From the NCBI RefSeq assembly GCF_016433145.1, contig NC_058131.1, positions 291,075,486-291,139,485 of the forward strand: a stretch of 64,000 nt of DNA, given 5' to 3'. Positions 9,237 through 59,414 of this stretch are shown here, piece by piece. The translations under genes and the position numbers were made by a program. Source of the DNA: Gracilinanus agilis (taxonomy: Eukaryota). The notes under the pieces were generated by a model. That model ran no database searches and had not been told where the DNA came from. It was given only the letters and a program-made list of their open reading frames with translations. Every line of letters starts with the position of its first letter. Within the stretch, counting starts at the first letter, position 1.

Positions 9237-9703
9237 GGAGAGGAGAGGAGAAGAGAGGAGAGGAGAGGAGAGGAGAGGAGAGGAGAGGAGAGGAGAGGAG
9301 AGGAGAGGAGAGGAGANNNNNNNNNNNNNNNNNNNNNNNNNNNNNNNNNNNNNNNNNNNNNNNNNNNNNNNNNNNNNNNNNNNNNNNNNNNNNNNNNNNN
9401 NNNNNNNNNNNNNNNNNNNNNNNNNNNNNNNNNNNNNNNNNNNNNNNNNNNNNNNNNNNNNNNNNNNNNNNNNNNNNNNNNNNNNNNNNNNNNNNNNNNN
9501 NNNNNNNNNNNNNNNNNNNNNNNNNNNNNNNNNNNNNNNNNNNNNNNNNNNNNNNNNNNNNNNNNNNNNNNNNNNNNNNNNNNNNNNNNNNNNNNNNNNN
9601 NNNNNNNNNNNNNNNNNNNNNNNNNNNNGGAGGGGAGGGGAGGAGAGGGGAGGGGAGGAGAGGGGAGGGAGGGGAGGGGAGGGGAGGAGAGGGGAGGGGA
9701 GGA
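9237..9703. repeat. (AGGAG)n/(AGGGG)n polypurine microsatellite spanning an assembly gap
   Basis: Pentamer arrays on both sides of the N run. Confidence 0.95.
9317..9628. other. Assembly gap (312 N)
   Basis: Run of N characters. Confidence 1.
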
Positions 9704-15157: not shown

Positions 15158-17153
15158 TGTGAATATTCTGGTATAAGTATTGAGGTTTTGGATTAAGGAA
15201 ATAACTGCCTTTGCAAGGCCTTAGTGCCAGACCCACCCTTCAATGTTGCTATATTAGGCACCCTAATTTGTGATCCATTATATATCAGGATGCCTGACCT
15301 TTAGTTCAGCACCTGGTACCACTCATCACCACCCTCTCTTGGCCCAGAGAACATCCTTCTTCCCCCAGATAACCATCAAGTGACTCTTAGGTAATGGTCA
15401 AAAGATGATCAGACATGACCTAATATATGGACAAATATGGGTTTTTTCCTAGATGAACTGACCAATGAGGGTTGTTATTGGGTGACTGATCTTTGAAGGC
15501 ATGATCAATCTTGTGATAATTTTGATTGGGATTTTTTAGGAATTTGGTATTTGATTGGGAAAATAAGAATCTTATTCTAAGGGTATATAAGGCAGTTCCT
15601 CCCAATGCTCTGAGTCTTCTGTTCTTAGAACAGGGATCCAGCTTTGTTGGAGGATTTAGCCTGCTTCCAATAAAACCGAAATAATTACCTAGCTTGGAAA
15701 ATTTGACTTTATTTATACAAAATGATTATTCTTTTTTTAAACATTTATTAATATTTATATTTTAGAAAAGTTAACATGTTTACATGATTATGCTCTTACT
15801 TTCCCCTTCACCCCCCTGACTAACCCCCCTCCCCTGGCCAATATGCATTTCCACTGGTTTTAACATGTGTCATTAATCAAGACCTATTTCCAAATTGTTG
15901 ATAGTTGCATTGGTGTGGTACTTTTGATCCCCAATCATGTCCTCATCAACCCATGTATTCAAGCAGTTGATTTTCTTCTGTGTTTCCTCTCCTGCAGTTC
16001 TTCCTCTGAATGTGGGTAGCATTCTTTACCATACGTCCCTTAGAATAGTCCTGGGTCATTGCATTGTTGCCAGTACAGAAGTCTATTACATTCTATTTTA
16101 CCACAGTATATCAGTCTCTGTGTACAATGTTCTCCTGGTTCTGCTCCTTTCGCTCTGCATCAGTTCCTGGAGGTCTTTCCAATTCATATGGAATTCCTCC
16201 AGTTTATTATTCCTTTGAGCACAATAGTATTCCATCACCCGCATATACCACAATTTGTTCAGCCATTCCCCAATTGAAGGGCATTCCCTCCTTTTCCAGT
16301 TTTTTGCCACCACAAAAAGCACAGCTATAAATATTTTCATACAAGTCTGTTTATCTATGATCTCTTTGGGGTACAATCCCAACAATGGTATGGCTGGATA
16401 AGGGCAGGCATTCTTTTATAGCCCTTTGAGCATGATTCCAAATTGCCATCCAGAATGGTTGGATCAGTTCACAACTCCACCAGCAATGCATTAATGTTCC
16501 AATTTGGCCACATCCCCTCCAACATTCATTACTCACCCCTTCTTTCATTTTAGCCATTCTGCTAGGTGTGAGGTGATACCTCAGAGTTGTTTTGATTTGC
16601 ATTTCTCTAATTATTAGAGATTTAGAACACTTTCTCATGTGCTTATTGATAGTTTTGATTTCTTTTTCTGAAAATTGCCTATTCATGTCCCTTGCCCATT
16701 TATCAATTGGGGAATGGCTTGATTTTTTATACAATTGATTTAACTCCTTGTATATTTGAGTAATTAGATCCTTGTCAGAGTTTTTTGTTATAAAGATTTT
16801 TTTCCCAATTTGTTGTTTCCCTTCTGATCTTGGCTACATTGTTTTGGTTTGTACAAAAGCTTTTTAGTTTAATATAATCAAAACCATTAAATTTACATTT
16901 TGTAATTTTCTCTAACTCTTGCTTGGTTTTAAAATCTTTCCTTTCCCAGAGATCTGACAAGTATACTATTCTGTGTTCACTTAACTGATTTATAGTTTCC
17001 CTCTTTATACTCAAGTCATTCACCCATTCTGAATTTATCTTAGTATAGGGTGTGAGATGTTGATCTAAACCTAATCTCTCCCATATTGTTTTCCAAATTT
17101 CCCAACAGTTTTTGTCAAACAAAATGATTATTCTTAAGAAAATTTTTACCACA
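15158..17153 (+). mobile_element. Solo LTR interrupted in its 3' part by an L1
   Basis: Starts TGTGAAT; TATATAA at 15584-15590; AATAAA at 15669-15674; resumes after the L1 and ends ...TTTACCACA at 17153. Confidence 0.6.
15734..17118 (-). mobile_element. 5'-truncated young L1 (ORF2 C-terminus + 3' UTR)
   Basis: Frameshifted ORF2 pieces (LTPYTKINS, KTTLRYHLTP, LLGLYPKE); 17-bp TSD ACAAAATGATTATTCTT at 15717-15733 and 17119-17135. Confidence 0.95.
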
Positions 17154-30825: not shown

Positions 30826-31194
30826 AGAATGTAATGGACTTCTGTACAGAGCAGCAATGCAATGACCCAGGACAATTCTGAGGGATTTATGGAAAAGAAT
30901 GCTACCCACATTCAGAGGAAGAACTGCAGGAGTGGAAACACAAGAAAAGCAACTGTTTGAACACATGGGTTGAGGTGGACATGATTGGGGATGTAGACTC
31001 GAAACTACCACACCAATGCAACTATCAATAATTTGGAAATAGATCTTGATCAATGACACATGATAAAATCAGTGGAAATGCACACCGGCTATGGGGGGGG
31101 GAGGGGAGGTTGGGGGTGAAGAGGAAAGTAAGAGCATGAATCATGTAACCATGTTAACTTTTCTAAAAAATAAATATTAAAAAAAATTTTTTAA
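30826..31194 (+). mobile_element. 5'-truncated young L1 (3' UTR only)
   Basis: Nearly identical to the 3' end of the L1 at 48267-49033; A-rich tail; 14-bp TSD AAAGAGCTGCCTGG at 30812-30825 and 31195-31208. Confidence 0.93.
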
Positions 31195-31505
31195 AAAGAG
31201 CTGCCTGGCAGCCTGGGAAGTTGTACCTGGCCCAGGATTATACAGCCTGTATATGCCAGACTCAGCATTGGGATCTGGATCTTAATGGCTAAGACCATCT
31301 CTTTATGCACTAGACCATGGCACTTCTCATAACTTAGTGCTGATCCCTTTAGTACTTTAGAATCATAGGACTGAGATGTTAGAAGGAGAAGGGACTTTAG
31401 AAGTTATCTGGTCTAATTCCCTCATTTTACAGATGAGAAAATCAAGGCTGAGAATGTGTAAAGTAACTTATTAAAGAGCACAAATTAGTTATATTGGTAA
31501 TGCTT

Positions 31506-31796: not shown

Positions 31797-31878
31797 TATA
31801 TTGGTAATGCTTAGAATTGGTCACTCTTGGGTAAAGTATTTACTTCTTTATTTCAGTGACATTGACTGTAACTTAAGG

Positions 31879-31988
31879 AAGTTACAGAATTTTTATGACT
31901 CAGAAGTATCCTAATGGTCAGGATGTTTTAAGGAAGATACAGAATTTTTACAACTCAGAAGTATCCTAATGGTCAGGATGTTTTAAGG
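31879..31988. repeat. 55-bp tandem duplication (2 copies)
   Basis: Copies 31879-31933 and 31934-31988 differ at 3 positions. Confidence 0.9.
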
Positions 31989-48266: not shown

Positions 48267-49033
48267 AGTTGTGAAGTGATCCAACCATTCTGGCTGGCAA
48301 TTTGGAACTATGCTCAAAGGGCTATAAAAGAATGCCTGTCCTTTGATCCAGCCATACCATTGTTGGGTTTGTACCCCAAAGAGATCATAGATAAACAGAC
48401 TTGTATGAAAATATTTATAGCTGTGCTTTTTGTGGTGGCAAAAAACTGGAAAATGAGGGTATGCCCTTCAGTTGGGGAATGGCTGAACAAATTGTGGTAT
48501 ATGCTGGTGATGGAATACTATTATGCTCAAAGGAATAATAAACTGGAGGAATTCCATGTGAACTGGAAAGACCTCCAGGAATTGATGCAGAGTGAAAGGA
48601 GCAGAGCCAGAAGAACATTGTACACAGAGACTGATACACTGTGGTAAAATGGAATGTAATGGACCTCTGTACTAGCAGCAATGCAATGACCCAGGACAAT
48701 TCTGAGGGATTTATGGAAAAGAATGCTACCCACATTCAGAGGAAGAACTACAGGAGAGGAAACAGAAGAAAAACAACTGCTTGAACACATGGGTTGAGGC
48801 GGACATGATTGGGGATGTAGACTCGAAAGTACCACACCAATGCAACTATCAACAATTTGAAAATAGGTCTTGATCAACGACACATGTTAAAACCAGTGGA
48901 AATACACATCTGCCATGGGGGGGAGGGGGAAGTCGTGAGGTGAAGGGGAAAGTAAGAGCATGAATTATGTAACTATGTTAACTTTTCAAAAAAAATAATA
49001 ATAAATGCTTAAAAAAAGTAAAAAACAAACAAA
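48267..49033 (+). mobile_element. 5'-truncated young L1, sense in BBS2 intron 15
   Basis: ORF2 C-terminus QPFWLAIWNYAQRAIKECLSFDPAIPLLGLYPKE...; A-tail; 17-bp TSD AAATTCCCTCCACTAGT at 48250-48266 and 49034-49050; TTTT/AAA endonuclease site. Confidence 0.95.
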
Positions 49034-51544: not shown

Positions 51545-51710
51545 TACCTAGTTTTTTAAGTCATTTAATTCCAGATGCCTAGCCCTTGCCATTCTTTTGT
51601 CTTAGAATTGGTACTAGGACAAAAGGTAAGATTAAAAATAAAATAACCTTTTGGTTTAAAGGCTCATGTTATTTCTTAATCATGTTGATGCTTATTTTCT
51701 CTCATTGCAG

Positions 51711-51817
51711 TTGGAAAACCAAAGAACCAGGTGGTTAGTGCTTGTCGAGATGCAATCCGGAGTAACAACCTCAACATGCTATTCAGGATAATGCGTGTGG
51801 GTACAGCTTCATCATAG
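51711..51817 (+). CDS. BBS2: BBS2 exon 17 (coding part, stop TAG)
   Basis: CATTGCAG|; (V)[34 protein letters not shown]. Confidence 0.96.
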
Positions 51818-52186: not shown

Positions 52187-52622
52187 ACTTAAAAACATTT
52201 GACCTTTGTGTGTTCTGGTTATTTGAAAATTGTAGTGCCTTTATTTCTAAGACTTAACATACCTTTGCTTCCATTATAGTTATTATTGTATTTTGGTTTG
52301 AACCTGTGATTTCATTGGTTTGGGGAACTCTCAGTGAGTTACCAGAGCAGATCAACAATTTGTCTGCAATTTAGATTCTTGGGGGGGGGGGGAGACATTC
52401 AGAAGCTAAGTGATTTATCCCACACAAACAGAATGTATCAGAGATGGGACTTGAACTCAGGTCTTCTTTCCTCTCTCTCTCCCTCCCTCCCTCCTTTCTT
52501 CTTTTCTTAGAGAGAGCTATATCTGTTACTCCAAGATGCCTTTCCACCCCCATTACCACCATATCTAGATCACTATTACTACTTTGCATCACTATTTCTG
52601 TTTCTTAGAGGAAAACCATATA

Positions 52623-53330
52623 CAGAAGGGTCCCCATATTTGCTGATTCAGTTACCCTTGGTTAACTATGGGGAAAAAATGGATTTAAGTGAGGCAGAGT
52701 TACATGAAGTTGTCATCCTCACTCTCTCTTCCAAAGTCATTCAAATCCAGTGTTAAAAAGGCAGGACAACTAGTGATGGGCCAGGATGCAGTGGATGACC
52801 TTGACTTCTTTGATGTCTGACCCAGCTCTAAGTACTCCATAGCACTTGCTTCAGCCACTTGTTGTTCTCATCCGCCCTTTCCACTGGGGAAGCCTTTATA
52901 TGCTGGATGGGTAGACACCCCACATGCTCACTGATGGGTTATCCTGAACCTGGTTTAGCCCCTCTGCCACCATGTTTACCAGAGTGTGGCCACTGCACAT
53001 GCTGTAGCTTCTTGGAGCCACAAGTGAATTGAATGCAGGTGGACACCAAAGGTAGATGAGCAGCTCTGAAAAGGGCTTGAGTAAGCCCTCACAGCAGAGG
53101 CTGTCCTCCCTGAATACTCATATACCCCGAGAGAGCACAGTACTGCATAATGTACAATGTTACTGTATTTAATTTTGGTAATGCCTTACTGTGCATTAAT
53201 AAGCTTTATTACATGTATATACAAGAATATCACTTCATGTATGGGTCCGGCAGGTATAGAGCCTGTATACATGGTTTCAGTCATCCACAGTAGGTCTTGA
53301 AATATCTCCTACAAATATGGGACCCTACTG
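52623..53330 (+). mobile_element. TcMar/Tigger-like MITE containing an RTE-derived insert (~52672-53118, minus)
   Basis: TIRs CAGAAGGGTCCCCATATTTG (52623-52642) and CAAATATGGGACCCTACTG (53312-53330); TA target at 52621-52622; right-hand TA displaced by the LTR. Confidence 0.7.
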
Positions 53331-53331
53331 T

Positions 53332-53738
53332 TGTGTTGTTTAAAATTATTCTAAGCCCTGGGAGACTGCGTCTCCAAGGACTCCCTGCTACAACTTCCCC
53401 CGACACCTCCCACTTCCTTTGTGGGAGGAATCAGAGAAAGTATAAAAGAGAGTTTTGGCATCGTTTGGGCCCTCAGCTCTTTCGACCCTGGAGACTCTCT
53501 TGGGCCTGAGCTCTCTCTCTCAGCGCCTTTTTCTGAGATCTACCTCCTATCTTCTCTAGATTTTCCTTTTCCTAACTAAATAAAAACCTAGCTATTTTAC
53601 AATAAGTGCTACCTGATCTTCATTGAGCTCTGAAGAGCTCAGGTCAATTTCCCCTACCAGGGCTGGGGGCTACCAACTGGGCTACCTTCCTTCCCCTATC
53701 CTACTTTCCTCCTTTCTCCTCCCTTCTCCCACCTCACA
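53332..53738 (+). mobile_element. Solo LTR (class I ERV type), 407 bp
   Basis: TG...CA ends; 4-bp TSD CTGT at 53328-53331 and 53739-53742; TATAAAA at 53441; AATAAA at 53579-53584. Confidence 0.9.
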
Positions 53739-53748
53739 CTGTATATGC

Positions 53749-54029
53749 CAGTGATGGTGAGCCTATGACACAGGTACCAAAGATGGCTCACAGAGCACTT
53801 TCTGTGGGCACTCAGCCACCCTCCACCTCCCCGCTTCCCCCAGAGTCCATTACTAGAAAGGGAGAGGGACTTGTATGGAGCTGCTCCCCTCCCCATCTCC
53901 ACCTAACCTGATGACATTTTTTTAATACACCCACCCCTCTGCCCAATAGCCCAATGGGAGTGCTTCCTCCCATGTGGGGTAAAGGCAGGGTGTGGCATGG
54001 CACAGTCTCTAAAAGATTTGCCATCACTG
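53749..54029 (+). mobile_element. hAT MITE, 281 bp
   Basis: TIRs CAGTGATGGTGAGCCT / AGATTTGCCATCACTG (12/16, mismatches all transitions); 8-bp TSD GTATATGC (53741-53748) vs GCACATGC (54030-54037). Confidence 0.8.
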
Positions 54030-54086
54030 GCACATGCATAAAGTTGTATATACATCTTTTCAACTGAAATCTGGTTTTAAGTGTAG

Positions 54087-55220
54087 TGTTGGAAATGGAA
54101 GGATAAATTTGGAGCTAGGAAAGAACATGGGATATGGATTACTAATACAGGAAGACCATTGTTACCAAAAGATTTGTATACCTATTCGTGTCAAGCCATC
54201 CACACAAAAGGTCAATTTGGTACACAAGCTGTTGTGTATTCCATCAAGAGACAATGGGTTGTTCCTGGAATAAGTACTGTTGCAAATAAGATCTGTAATA
54301 GTTGTTCAGTCTGCCAAAAGTTCAATCAAAGTGTATTCAGAAAGAAAGGTTTGGGTGGTAGGCCTTTAGCATATTGTCCATTTGAGAGTTTACAGATTGA
54401 TTATATATGTATGCCTAAAGCTGGAAGATACAAGTATTGTCTTGTGATAGTTGATAGACTAACTAAATGGCCTGTAGCTTTTCCATCAAATACCAACACA
54501 GCTAGTTTTGTGATGCAAGTGTTACTCAAGGAAATTGTGCCTAGATTTGGTGTACCTTTAACCATAGATTCGGATAAGGGATCTCTTTTCACTCAGGATA
54601 TCCTTAGAAGAGTCTATGAGAATCTAGGAATAACACCTAAATATCATGTTTCTTATCACCCACAGAGTTCAGGTCAAGTGGAGCGTATGAATAGGGAACT
54701 CAAGACTATGGTTGGGAAACTCTGTGCTGAAACTCATCTTAAATGGCCAGATATTCTTCCCATAGTTTTGTTTTACCTACATATGAGGCCAAGAGCAGAT
54801 CTAAATATATCATCGTATGAGATGCTCTTTGGACATGCTCTGCTACAAGCAAAGACTTGTAAGGCTGTTTATGCATCACTCTTAGGAGGTGATTGCCAAA
54901 TTGCTTCATATTTAAGTGCTTTACAGCAGAGGCTAAGAGAATTACAAGACATGGGAGTATTAACTCAATCTGGTCCATTGGATTATTCTCTTCATAATTT
55001 TCAACCAGGTGATATGGTCTGTGTGAGAAATTTTGCCAAAACATTGGCAACAGAACAAAATTGGGTAGGTCCTTATACAATTGATTTAGTTTCACCATCT
55101 TCTGTAAAAGTTTTAGGTAGAGATTCGTGGTATCATTGTTCACATATTAAATTAGCACATGGAATAGATAATGAAAATGTAGAGATTATTAATAATGAAG
55201 AAGAAGAAGAGATTGTGTAA
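54087..55220 (+). CDS. ERV integrase (open frame of 377 codons plus stop; C-terminal part of Pol)
   Basis: WKDKFGARKEHGIWITNTGRPLLPK...; Zn finger H-(Q for H)-C-C; catalytic QIDY, DSDKG and QVERMN with D(35)E spacing; GPY module WVGPYTI. No native start upstream of the catalytic core. Confidence 0.9.
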   Translation, partial: CWKWKDKFGARKEHGIWITNTGRPLLPKDLYTYSCQAIHTKGQFGTQAVVYSIKRQWVVPGISTVANKICNSCSVCQKFNQSVFRKKGLGGRPLAYCPFESLQIDYICMPKAGRYKYCLVIVDRLTKWPVAFPSNTNTASFVMQVLLKEIVPRFGVPLTIDSDKGSLFTQDILRRVYENLGITPKYHVSYHPQSSGQVERMNRELKTMVGKLCAETHLKWPDILPIVLFYLHMRPRADLNISSYEMLFGHALLQAKTCKAVYASLLGGDCQIASYLSALQQRLRELQDMGVLTQSGPLDYSLHNFQPGDMVCVRNFAKTLATEQNWVGPYTIDLVSPSSVKVLGRDSWYHCSHIKLAHGIDNENVEIINNEEEEEIV

Positions 55221-56647
55221 TTTGAGATCTTCAGTCAATGAGAGTCTGCAGTCAGAAAGTTCAGTAAGGAGAGGACCATTCCAGCAGAAGGGGACGTTCG
55301 GATGGAAGAGGACATGGATGGATAAAGAGGATTCAGGATTCAGGATTTGTGGACTTTGTATTAAGACTGATGAACTTTTGAATTGAACTGATAAAACTTC
55401 ATTTTCAAGGATTTTCTTAAAGAAGAGGATTAATCATGGACAATTTGGATTAAATGGTTTGGAAGTATTTTGGGTAATGTAAATAGTATCACTACAAACT
55501 CATATGCATCCAACATTGCATATAAAACTATCAAGAACTTTGATGGAGAATAGGGGAAGAGGAAAAAAGGAGTGAAGAGAAGATTTCCTTAAGGAATGGA
55601 ACATCACAAGAAGAAAGGAGATCTATCATACATACATCAGTAACATGTTGCAACACAATATAGCAAAGAAACAATATAACAAGTCAGATAAATATGACAC
55701 AAACATGTTATGATACATTGTGTTCCTTATGGGATGGAACAATGTATAATACTAACAAAATTAGAATTAGCTATAGGATAAGTAAGTACTAACAAAAGAT
55801 AGTTACTAACAAAGATTAGCTAGTTATTTAGGTAGATGTAGCTAGACTAACGTACTAATATCACTGGGGTAGTTTAGAATAGTTTAGTGAAATAGATATA
55901 GTATTAGATTAGATTAGAGGATATGATAAGGTACTAATGTACATTAAAGTGCAAATGCAACAAACATAACAAAATTGCATTACATGAAGAACATATACTA
56001 CAGATCACATATGAAATAATGTAAATAGCATGTATATATTATAAATTGTATTATAGTATAAGTATTGTATATATGTAAAGGGCGTAAACATGTATATTTG
56101 ATATGCATATATTATGCACACATATATGTACATGTGTATACCATGCATGTATATATGTCTGTATCATGCATATATGTGTATAACTAAATTCTGTGAATAC
56201 TTTGATATAATTGAGTTGCAAACATTTCGATGTAATTTGCATAAGTGGGTTTGTTGTTTTATTTTTGATGTAAACTTATGCAATGTTGTATTAAAATGTA
56301 TTTTTCAAAATTGTTTGCATTTATTACTTGGTAGGATATTTCTTTATTAGAATAGGAATTGCATTTGATGTTTGTTTTGACTTTTGTGTTATTTCATATT
56401 TGCTATTGATTTTGTTGGAAATTTTGCATTGTTACTTGTTGCTTTGTGCTTTGAGCTATGTAACTGTTCAATGTATTTATCCCTTTACCTTTCCTTGTTG
56501 AAATCTCTAGTGTAGGATAGAATAGGATAGTGTTAGATAGAATAGTTAGTGTAGGTTGTTTGTTTTTTTGGGTTAGAATTTTAGTTTAGTTTGTAGTGCA
56601 CAAATACTAAAATGTTGTTAATTTTGGCTTTGTGCAAAGGGGGGAAC

Positions 56648-57396
56648 TGTTGTGAGGAAGGTTATTATTTAGTTGTTATGTAGGAGACCTAGCAGGAAGG
56701 GCTGGAGAATTCCACATGGAATGGGGAAGCAGGAAGTGGCTTGCACTCTCTGAGAGGGACTCCACAGTGGTTGGGACAAGTAGTAACTGATTCTCTGGGA
56801 GACCTCAGAGCTAGTGGAGTTGTACCCTGATTCCCTGGGATCCTGGAGTGTGGTGAAGGTTGGAAGCAGAGGACATTTATCCTGCACAACAGCACTGAGT
56901 AGGGAGTGATCTGCGAACTGGTGGACAGCTTGTAAACTTCCTCTCCCTACTGGGCTGCTTTGGACCATCAGTTCTGGAGGAGTTGGTTCCTGGCATCCTG
57001 AAAACATCTCTGGACTCTACTGTGAGGATTCCCACTCCAGTCCTGTTATTCTCTGGGCCCTGCCTGGCTTAGATCTTAGATTAGTGTAGATAAGTCCCTC
57101 CCTTGACCCTGTGGTTTGCCCTTAGCGTGTTAGTGTAGAATCCCTTATTCCCATCCTTTATTATTGTTTCCCTCAATTAAACTGTTATAAACCTTGCCGG
57201 CTTCCATAAGCCTAGTCTTGTTACTGCAGAGTGACAGTTGGGCCCAAATGCCACCTCAGTAGTAGTCACCTCCTTGGCAGTAAAACCTGGTCTCCCTACC
57301 TTGTTTTGGTCCTGTCATCTGTCATTCCTGTCTCTCTTACCCCACTGTGAACCCACAAATAATAATAGTTAACATCCCTGGTAACCCTCCATTACA
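56648..57396 (+). mobile_element. 3' LTR of the truncated ERV (749 bp)
   Basis: Begins TG directly after the PPT; ATTAAA at ~57176-57181; ends CA at the direct-repeat junction. Confidence 0.85.
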
Positions 57397-58029
57397 GTAT
57401 GTACATCTTTTCAACTGAAATCTGGTTTTAAGTGTACAATTATGTGCTGTAATACACCAGCAAATTTATATGAAATGAGATTGGAGATGATTTGCCTTAT
57501 TAAATCATTAAGGCATTCAAAAATTGTTCTCTGAATTAAATTTAACAAGTTTAACCTTGAAGTTACATTAAACAGTGGACCTTCATAACTCTCCCTAGCC
57601 TAATGTCTCATTCATAAGCAATTTTGAGGGGAGTCAGTTTGCTACTTATATCAACTTAAATGATTCCAGTTGTTCACATCATCCAGATATTATTCTACTG
57701 CTCAAGCATGAACTTTTGGAGTAAGGACTTTTTATGAGTATACTTATAATTCTCTGAATTTCTGTTGCATATTTTCACTTACAGGTTGAAAGCACTTATT
57801 TTTCTCTCCTCTCTGAAATAGCTATCATCATGCCCATTTTACAGATGGAAAGGCATAGAAAGGTTAATTGATTTGTCTGAGGTTAGAACTTAACAAAATT
57901 AGGTCTTCTAATGTCCAGCCTTCTTTCTTCTTGACCTCATTTTTTTCAGGTTGGTTACTTCCTATCTCTAGTTGTAGCTAGTTTTGAGTGGCCCTGGATT
58001 TGAACTTTGGTTCTGCTACTTACTTCTCC

Positions 58030-59172
58030 TTTTTTCACAAGAAGGGAAGTTTATTAAATACAGTAGATTCAAAACCATGCAGAAACACCCCAACCTCAAA
58101 TGCATGACCATTTATACAAAATGCCTTTTGACTAGAGGTAAAGAAGCTGGAATTATTTATCCCTCCAGAATGAGACTACTTAAAGTGGTGATAGTTCTTG
58201 TACACTCTTCTTCTTCCACAATTCTATCCTGTAAGAATTGTCTTCCAGGCAATTTGAACAAATTTTGTGCAAATAGTGAATGCCTTTTCTGAGGAATCAG
58301 GTATAAATGTGATAGTCTTTTTATTCTCAAATAGTAGCAATTTCGATTTCCCAGTAATCTATATCAAAGAATTTTAAAAATTCATTTACCATGAGATAAG
58401 AAGTATCCATACTTGAAATGAAAGGTTTTAAACTGGGCAAACAAAATTCCTTGGCAATGTTTCTGTAGTATTTCTGGTTTGGATTTCTGACACTTTTCTT
58501 TCAGCTCTGTGATTGTGTTAAAAATCCACTTAGCTTGGCCATCATGGCCTCTCATTTCTTTTGTTCCATTATTTTGTTCCTGGATAACTCTGTCTAAGGA
58601 TAAGCCTCTGATAAAGATCACTGAATTTCTTTCTCATATCTAGAGTAAGTTCCTTCTCCTTTCTTTTCTCCTTCCTCTTTAGGTGTTTATGTATTCCTGG
58701 AATTTTTTTCTCAATTATTTTTCTGGACATATCCTTGGTGGTCAGTCCCAAAGATTTCTCCTCTGTAAATAGAAGTTTCTTCATTTTCTTTTATGTGCCT
58801 GTCCAAGATTTCCAGAAGCAACTTGATTTTCTTCCTGTAGCAAAGAGCAAGCACTGCAATGGGCTATTGTATATTGTACTCAAGTTCCTCTAATTTGGAG
58901 CAGGTCACACTGAGCAAGGTCTTGTTCTTGTTACAGAATAGCTTCTGGTCTTCCCTGTGTTGAGTCACACATGCCTTCTCCTTCTGGGTGCATCACATCA
59001 GCCTGGAGACCTCTCTCTTCTTGGAGAATTTCCAGCATGAAGATGAAGAGGCTTTGTTCATAAAACAAGATAAACAAAAAGTGTGTCCACATTTGATGGT
59101 AATTAGTTTAATGACTTCATTCCAGGAGATAACACAGAGAAGACCCTCTCATTGTTCCATATGAGCAGCCAA
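58030..59172 (-). pseudogene. Intronless TRIM-family (RING-B-box-coiled coil-SPRY) pseudogene
   Basis: Minus strand: MEQ*EGLLCVISWNEVIKLITIKCGHTFCLSCF (RING); CVTQHREDQKLFCNKNKTLLSVTCS (B-box); ITELKEKCQKSKPEILQ (coiled coil); DYWEIEI and EVGVFL (SPRY); multiple stops and frameshifts. Confidence 0.88.
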
Positions 59173-59414
59173 GATCCTTTGAAATCTTTTTCCTGAATGT
59201 CTGCCCCCTCCAGATTTCAGCTTGGGGCAGCAGTAAGCTGTCAGAGTAAGCACATCTTCCTACCCTTTTCAGACTCCCCTGTTTCTGTTGCCACTGTCCT
59301 GATAGTAACCACGGTTTGAGTCTTAGCCTCTTCCTTAATTCTTTTCACTCAATTCAAATGTCAGAGGATATTGCCTGCATCTTGTTCGTATCTCCAGAAC
59401 TTCTCTCGCACTGG

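Follow-up and report, generated by a model that had tools for sequence, protein, structure and literature searches.

Germline insertions of endogenous retroviruses (ERVs) flanked by long duplications of host DNA have already been published for HERV-K(HML-2) (PMC5488345, PMC4422153). Kahyo et al. (2017; PMC5488345) list eight HML-2 sites with duplications of more than 10 bp among 451 putative target-site duplications (TSDs). At HERV-K(HML-2) 6p25.2, a truncated provirus retains a single LTR, carries 7 bp of junction remnant and is flanked by a duplication of 111 bp; its truncation point is the same in human, chimpanzee, gorilla and orangutan, and its pre-integration allele has been sequenced (PMC5488345). 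Other long-TSD HML-2 loci are found at 4q32.1 (206 bp), 7p21.2 (250 bp) and 21q21.1 (450 bp) (PMC5488345), and Macfarlane and Badge (2015; PMC4422153) ascribe such loci to inefficient integration.

Products of one-ended integration are also known from cell culture. Varadarajan et al. (2016; PMC5041404) describe, as a common outcome, products with one normal end, another end that is often truncated, and host DNA that is most often duplicated; they arose with end mutants of ASLV and with HIV-1 under integrase inhibitors or with a weak integrase. Microhomology between virus and host is usual, although not obligatory, at an aberrant junction of this kind. Among 15 XMRV integrations, one (clone C-3) showed damage at its left end together with a duplication of 273 bp (PMC2857682). 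The canid ERV-Fc study (PMC6407205) gives 5-bp TSDs for proviruses and, in the passages covered, offers no precedent for a long duplication. Our literature search returned no marsupial ERV with a long duplication by title or abstract, which is a weak negative, and supplements may hold closer cases.

Here we describe a 5'-truncated, env-less ERV of about 3.3 kb (3,311 bp between the repeat copies) enclosed by a 40-bp direct repeat in a window of 64,000 nucleotides from the opossum Gracilinanus agilis. The locus is not new in kind; it is the mirror image of HML-2 6p25.2, in a marsupial class I-like env-less family. The two share a single LTR, an internal truncation, seven junction bases and a long, near-identical host duplication, and for the long-TSD HML-2 loci, as here, aberrant integration is favoured and later rearrangement is the stated rival. 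They differ in that 6p25.2 is betaretrovirus-like and kept its 5' LTR, whereas the opossum element is class I-like and env-less and kept its 3' LTR, and in that the duplication is 111 bp with a sequenced pre-integration allele in the former but 40 bp with an indirectly supported empty allele in the latter. With the one-ended proviruses from culture (ASLV, HIV-1 and XMRV C-3) the locus shares a correct CA at one end, damage or truncation at the other, and an enlarged duplication. However, the culture cases are somatic, lie at known reference sites and often have duplications of hundreds to thousands of bp, while the opossum locus is an inherited fossil in which the order of events is inferred.

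Results

The features of the element and its surroundings are collected in Table 1. The initial annotation had reported the 40-bp repeat, a right junction exactly at the LTR terminal CA, and a left junction within pol just before the integrase zinc finger with 5' LTR, gag and RT absent. Recomputation gave the same coordinates and the same identity for the repeat, and the data given below agree with it on both junctions.

Table 1. Features of the ERV insertion and of the adjoining host DNA (positions in the window).
Feature	Position	Strand	Remarks
BBS2 gene	20234-51817	+	17 exon matches
BBS2 last coding exon	51704..51817	+	stop codon at 51817
MITE, 281 bp, short terminal inverted repeats	53749..54029	.	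degenerate 8-bp TSD (6/8), hAT-type
Left copy of 40-bp host duplication	54046..54085	+	39/40 vs right copy
7 nt at broken junction, diverged viral sequence or filler	54086..54092	+	best Pol alignments start 54093
3' end of pol, stop-free 377-codon frame	54087..55220	+	integrase zinc finger, core, MLV-type C-terminal domain
AT-rich (30% GC) stretch, ~1.4 kb	55221..56635	+	longest stop-free stretch 82 aa
Polypurine tract	56636..56647	+	sequence
3' LTR, 749 bp, TG...CA	56648..57396	+	imperfect terminal inverted repeat (5/7), ATTAAA at 57176
Right copy of 40-bp host duplication	57397..57436	+	adjoins LTR terminal CA

The two copies of the 40-mer differ at repeat position 5 only (54050 vs 57401), and the repeat cannot be extended by a single base on either side. 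The next best ungapped match of the 40-mer in the window is 23/40 on the forward strand and 24/40 on the reverse strand, which is the level of a control with 200 shuffled 40-mers (mean best match 24.4, maximum 29), and the repeat is therefore far beyond what chance would give. Its exact core of 35 nt is the second longest of the 14 exact direct repeats of at least 20 nt in the window, the other 13 of which fall, by their coordinates, in dispersed repeat families. The 40-mer is host DNA that predates the insertion, since an orthologous piece in sequencing run X1 carries it together with the right flank, from exactly 57397, without the LTR. That the 40-mer might instead belong to the ERV, a possibility that the initial annotation had named as fatal to its reading, is ruled out by this occurrence and by the absence of Pol similarity. 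The translated 40-mer shows a short similarity to the linker of the related Pol protein P0075, taken to be a coincidence because the translation closes with two stops and is not continuous with the integrase frame. At its first four bases the repeat agrees with the MLV target-site consensus VTAB (quoted in PMC2857682), an observation that is post hoc and weak, with roughly a 1 in 20 probability by chance.

At the left junction, the viral end opposite the CA is truncated within pol. Similarity to related Pol proteins starts between 54090 and 54093 (leftmost match 54090), in the linker between RNase H and integrase, at a point equivalent to residue 756 of the Monodelphis protein P0001 (1,116 residues), and the Pfam zinc-finger match begins at residue 27 of the frame that opens at 54087. 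This frame has neither a start codon nor a promoter, and no RT or RNase H lies upstream of it; among the zinc ligands of the HHCC motif, the second is not conserved in the present copy. The element lacks a 5' LTR, gag, RT and RNase H, since none of 83 proteins gave any tblastn match in the window outside 54000-55300 and a blastn search with the LTR found no second copy in the window, the LTR matching only itself. Likewise, the element has no PBS, and the window holds no viral sequence upstream of the pol break. No convincing local template for the seven junction nucleotides was found in the window, and a 10-mer common to the left junction and position 56413 was set aside as being at chance level, given that several starts were tried.

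At the right junction the polypurine tract is followed by the TG of the LTR at 56648, the CA at 57395-57396 and then the 40-mer. About 215 nt of the LTR follow the ATTAAA, presumably the end of R plus U5. The conserved CA stands directly against host DNA, and the duplicated host DNA, which is longer than the 4-6 bp of a normal TSD, begins at this junction; the end of the LTR is fixed independently, since the orthologous X1 piece starts at 57397. The two LTRs and the 4-6-bp TSD of a normal concerted provirus are thus not what is seen here.

The integrase has an MLV-type C-terminal domain (PF18697, E 4.4e-11), as in class I (gamma/epsilon-like) elements. In a tree of 21 integrase sequences the element groups with vertebrate ERV Pol proteins, and it forms with P0075 and three Monodelphis proteins a clade of five rows with support 100/100; the tree contains no named class I reference virus, and the element is here called class I-like. 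The Pol proteins of Monodelphis domestica (K7E2C3 and A0A5F8GG34; P0001 and P0002) belong to this clade and have the same type of C-terminal domain. However, they are only about 60% identical to the element (about 60% for P0001), which makes them a sister family, and P0075, at 81% integrase identity, is nearer. No env remnant was found in 55221-56635; one match (E 0.039), to an unrelated protein, was disregarded. In all four sequencing runs this AT-rich stretch reaches depths of hundreds to tens of thousands, and it is shared with other copies of the family; the env-less state therefore appears to belong to the family. DNA of the family was not confirmed in any of 232 pattern matches in metagenome contigs, nor in any of 38 in viral contigs.

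Four sequencing runs were aligned to 52600-59300 at 82% likeness. Runs X1-X3 come from one organism, here called A (two samples, one study), and X4 from another, B (share 0.72), which may be the source of the assembly itself. The internal sequence of the family (55221-56647) is abundant in both organisms, whereas the LTR type (56648-57396) is nearly absent in A: in X1-X3 pol and the internal sequence occur in many copies, but the LTR has almost no depth (2.7, 0 and 0 at 56856-57079 and 0, 0 and 0 at 57080-57303 for X1, X2 and X3, respectively). The LTR type is lineage-specific, with LTR turnover on a shared env-less backbone. In X4 the summed contig depth is 56,000-174,000 over the LTR versus 34-80 in the right flank, and one contig (record 32) covers 57370-59300 with 0 differences, in which 27 LTR letters are joined to the 40-mer and the flank, fewer than the 31 letters of the bridging rule.

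The alignment of the orthologous X1 piece (record 8) begins exactly at 57397 and ends at 59138, with 148 differing letters (8.5% divergence), and its record coordinates, as we read them, leave 98 further letters to the left of 57397 that are not LTR. These data would fit an empty site whose contig stops within the high-copy MITE on the left, and suggest that the insertion is younger than the split between A and B. Among the joints (15 of 994) and pieces (32 of 81,859) listed, neither an empty allele with a single 40-mer nor a full-length allele was seen directly, and none bridged the left junction (54085/54086). Letters that differ in every X4 contig (e.g. 54475 and 54842) were considered as a sign that this copy is missing from X4, an idea that was rejected because contigs drop rare variants.

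The insertion lies 2.2 kb downstream of the BBS2 stop codon, on the same strand. Over the summed exon alignments, BBS2 shows 93.5-94.9% identity to the proteins of Monodelphis and Gracilinanus and 88.8-91.3% identity to those of five Australian marsupials, which places the host among the didelphid opossums. An older MITE, present at high copy in all four runs, ends 16 nt to the left of the left 40-mer; it is considered hAT-type on account of its degenerate 8-bp TSD, and we take it to resemble the OC1/Charlie elements of opossums. Further left, at about 53330-53660, an LTR-like piece with AATAAA near 53578 reaches a depth of 84,878 in X4 (bin 53272-53495); blastn gives no similarity to the 3' LTR of the element, and the piece is possibly a solo LTR of another family. 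Elsewhere in the window, a dispersed repeat occurs in three copies that are 87-94% alike and lie in both orientations (15732-16476, 30850-31196 and 48267-48973). BBS2 intron 1 carries a 55-bp tandem duplication (31873-31988, 2.1 copies, 95% matches), and an assembly gap of 312 N (9317-9628) separates two AGGAG/GGAGG microsatellite arrays.

Discussion

We regard one-ended integration in the opossum germ line, finished by host repair, as the best reading of the locus, probable rather than secure. The initial annotation had proposed this origin and called the structure its signature. The origin stands as the leading explanation and fits the aberrant proviruses from cell culture, but the structure is not a unique signature, since a normal provirus that was later rearranged would leave the identical sequence. 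On the preferred reading, which follows the model of Varadarajan et al. (2016; PMC5041404), integrase would have attached the processed U5 end to the first base of the 40-mer. The opposite viral end would have been unusable, through either a stall of minus-strand synthesis in pol or the resection of a failed U3 end over several kb; both a stalled minus strand and a resected full-length cDNA would have a finished U5 end and a free 3'-OH in pol. Host polymerase and recombination would then have joined the free 3' end 40 bp further along, with the second join on the side that yields a duplication and not a deletion. One-ended integration explains with one event both oddities of the locus, the broken end and the long duplication. 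Judged by what it lacks (5' LTR, PBS, gag and RT), the element would have been dead on arrival, and it could in principle vanish without a trace if the two 40-bp copies recombined.

The most serious alternative, which we consider unlikely, is that a provirus with a normal 4-5-bp TSD was rearranged later: a break in its 5' half would have been mended with about 36 nt beyond the site, copied from the empty homolog or the sister chromatid, followed by end-joining to pol, or, in an equivalent form, an illegitimate exchange would have taken place between empty and filled alleles. The product is logically equivalent and has the same letters as those observed, and an integrase-made right junction is expected here too, so that this junction does not discriminate. 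A heterozygous insertion would offer many generations of opportunity, and Kahyo et al. (PMC5488345) concede later rearrangement as a source of long putative TSDs. The lone mismatch in the 40-mer could be an allelic difference between haplotypes; however, one mismatch in 40 (95% interval 0.06-13%) is also expected from age, given the X1 divergence of 8.5%. Rearrangement moreover requires two separate events, our literature search on such a route found nothing, and the truncation point of HML-2 6p25.2 is common to four apes (PMC5488345).

A fragment of cDNA may also have been captured at a host break without integrase, its unprocessed U5 end being end-joined and staggered nicks or copying giving rise to the 40-bp duplication. 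The 40-mer opens with two bases that are the reverse complement of the two preceding the TG of the LTR, and a join at 2 nt of microhomology would fit the right junction if the unprocessed U5 end mirrors the U3 end. However, these two bases are host DNA (they are present in the left copy, and the X1 piece starts there), and a coincidence of 1 in 16 is cheap. Terminal bases are usually lost in integrase-free captures, which seldom give a 40-bp duplication, and we find such a capture improbable here.

Slightly less credible still is an assembly artefact, in which a chimeric left junction would have been built from an empty-allele path and pol sequence. The window does contain an assembly gap elsewhere, the left junction is unbridged among the 32 of 81,859 pieces listed, and the X4 contig runs unbroken through the right 40-mer, where a second near-identical copy should branch the 31-mer graph, an observation that also speaks against one-ended integration. 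Assemblers may prune short low-depth links beside high-copy repeats, which can explain the unbranched contig; it could also reflect a different left side in X4. Against a chimera, no N occurs at or near either junction, the two 40-mers differ by one base, and X4 contigs match exactly on both flanks (records 25, 26 and 32).

Very improbable, too, is that the 40-bp duplication existed beforehand and that a provirus landed inside it and later lost its 5' half. Kahyo et al. (PMC5488345) have put forward such pseudo-TSDs for HML-2 loci. Short tandem duplications do occur in the window, as in BBS2 intron 1, but each of the two junctions would need to fall at an end of the repeat (the offset is 0 nt on the right and at most 7 nt on the left). 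Although 5' truncation and TSDs longer than those made by integrase are L1 traits, a 5'-truncated processed copy of ERV RNA made by L1-mediated retrotransposition, which had been excluded at the outset, can be dismissed here as well, as the copy continues past ATTAAA up to the CA of U5, no poly(A) tail is present (within 60 nt of the right junction no run of A exceeds 3), and no TT/AAAA-type endonuclease site is found at either end of the repeat.

The locus extends long-duplication ERV insertions, known from primate HERV-K, to a marsupial class I-like element that kept its 3' LTR. Its importance is modest, and no function is proposed for the element; one locus gives no rate of one-ended integration, which a genome-wide count would give. 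Such insertions escape annotation pipelines that require two LTRs and a TSD of 4-6 bp. A bolder reading, and an improbable one, is that the family routinely inserts unfinished reverse transcripts, with the U5 end joined by integrase and the 3' end of a stalled minus strand priming on host DNA. If true, routine insertion of this kind would leave 5'-truncated copies with long duplications throughout the genome, LINE-like in shape but made by integrase, and such a series would give an in vivo germline rate of one-ended integration outside primates.
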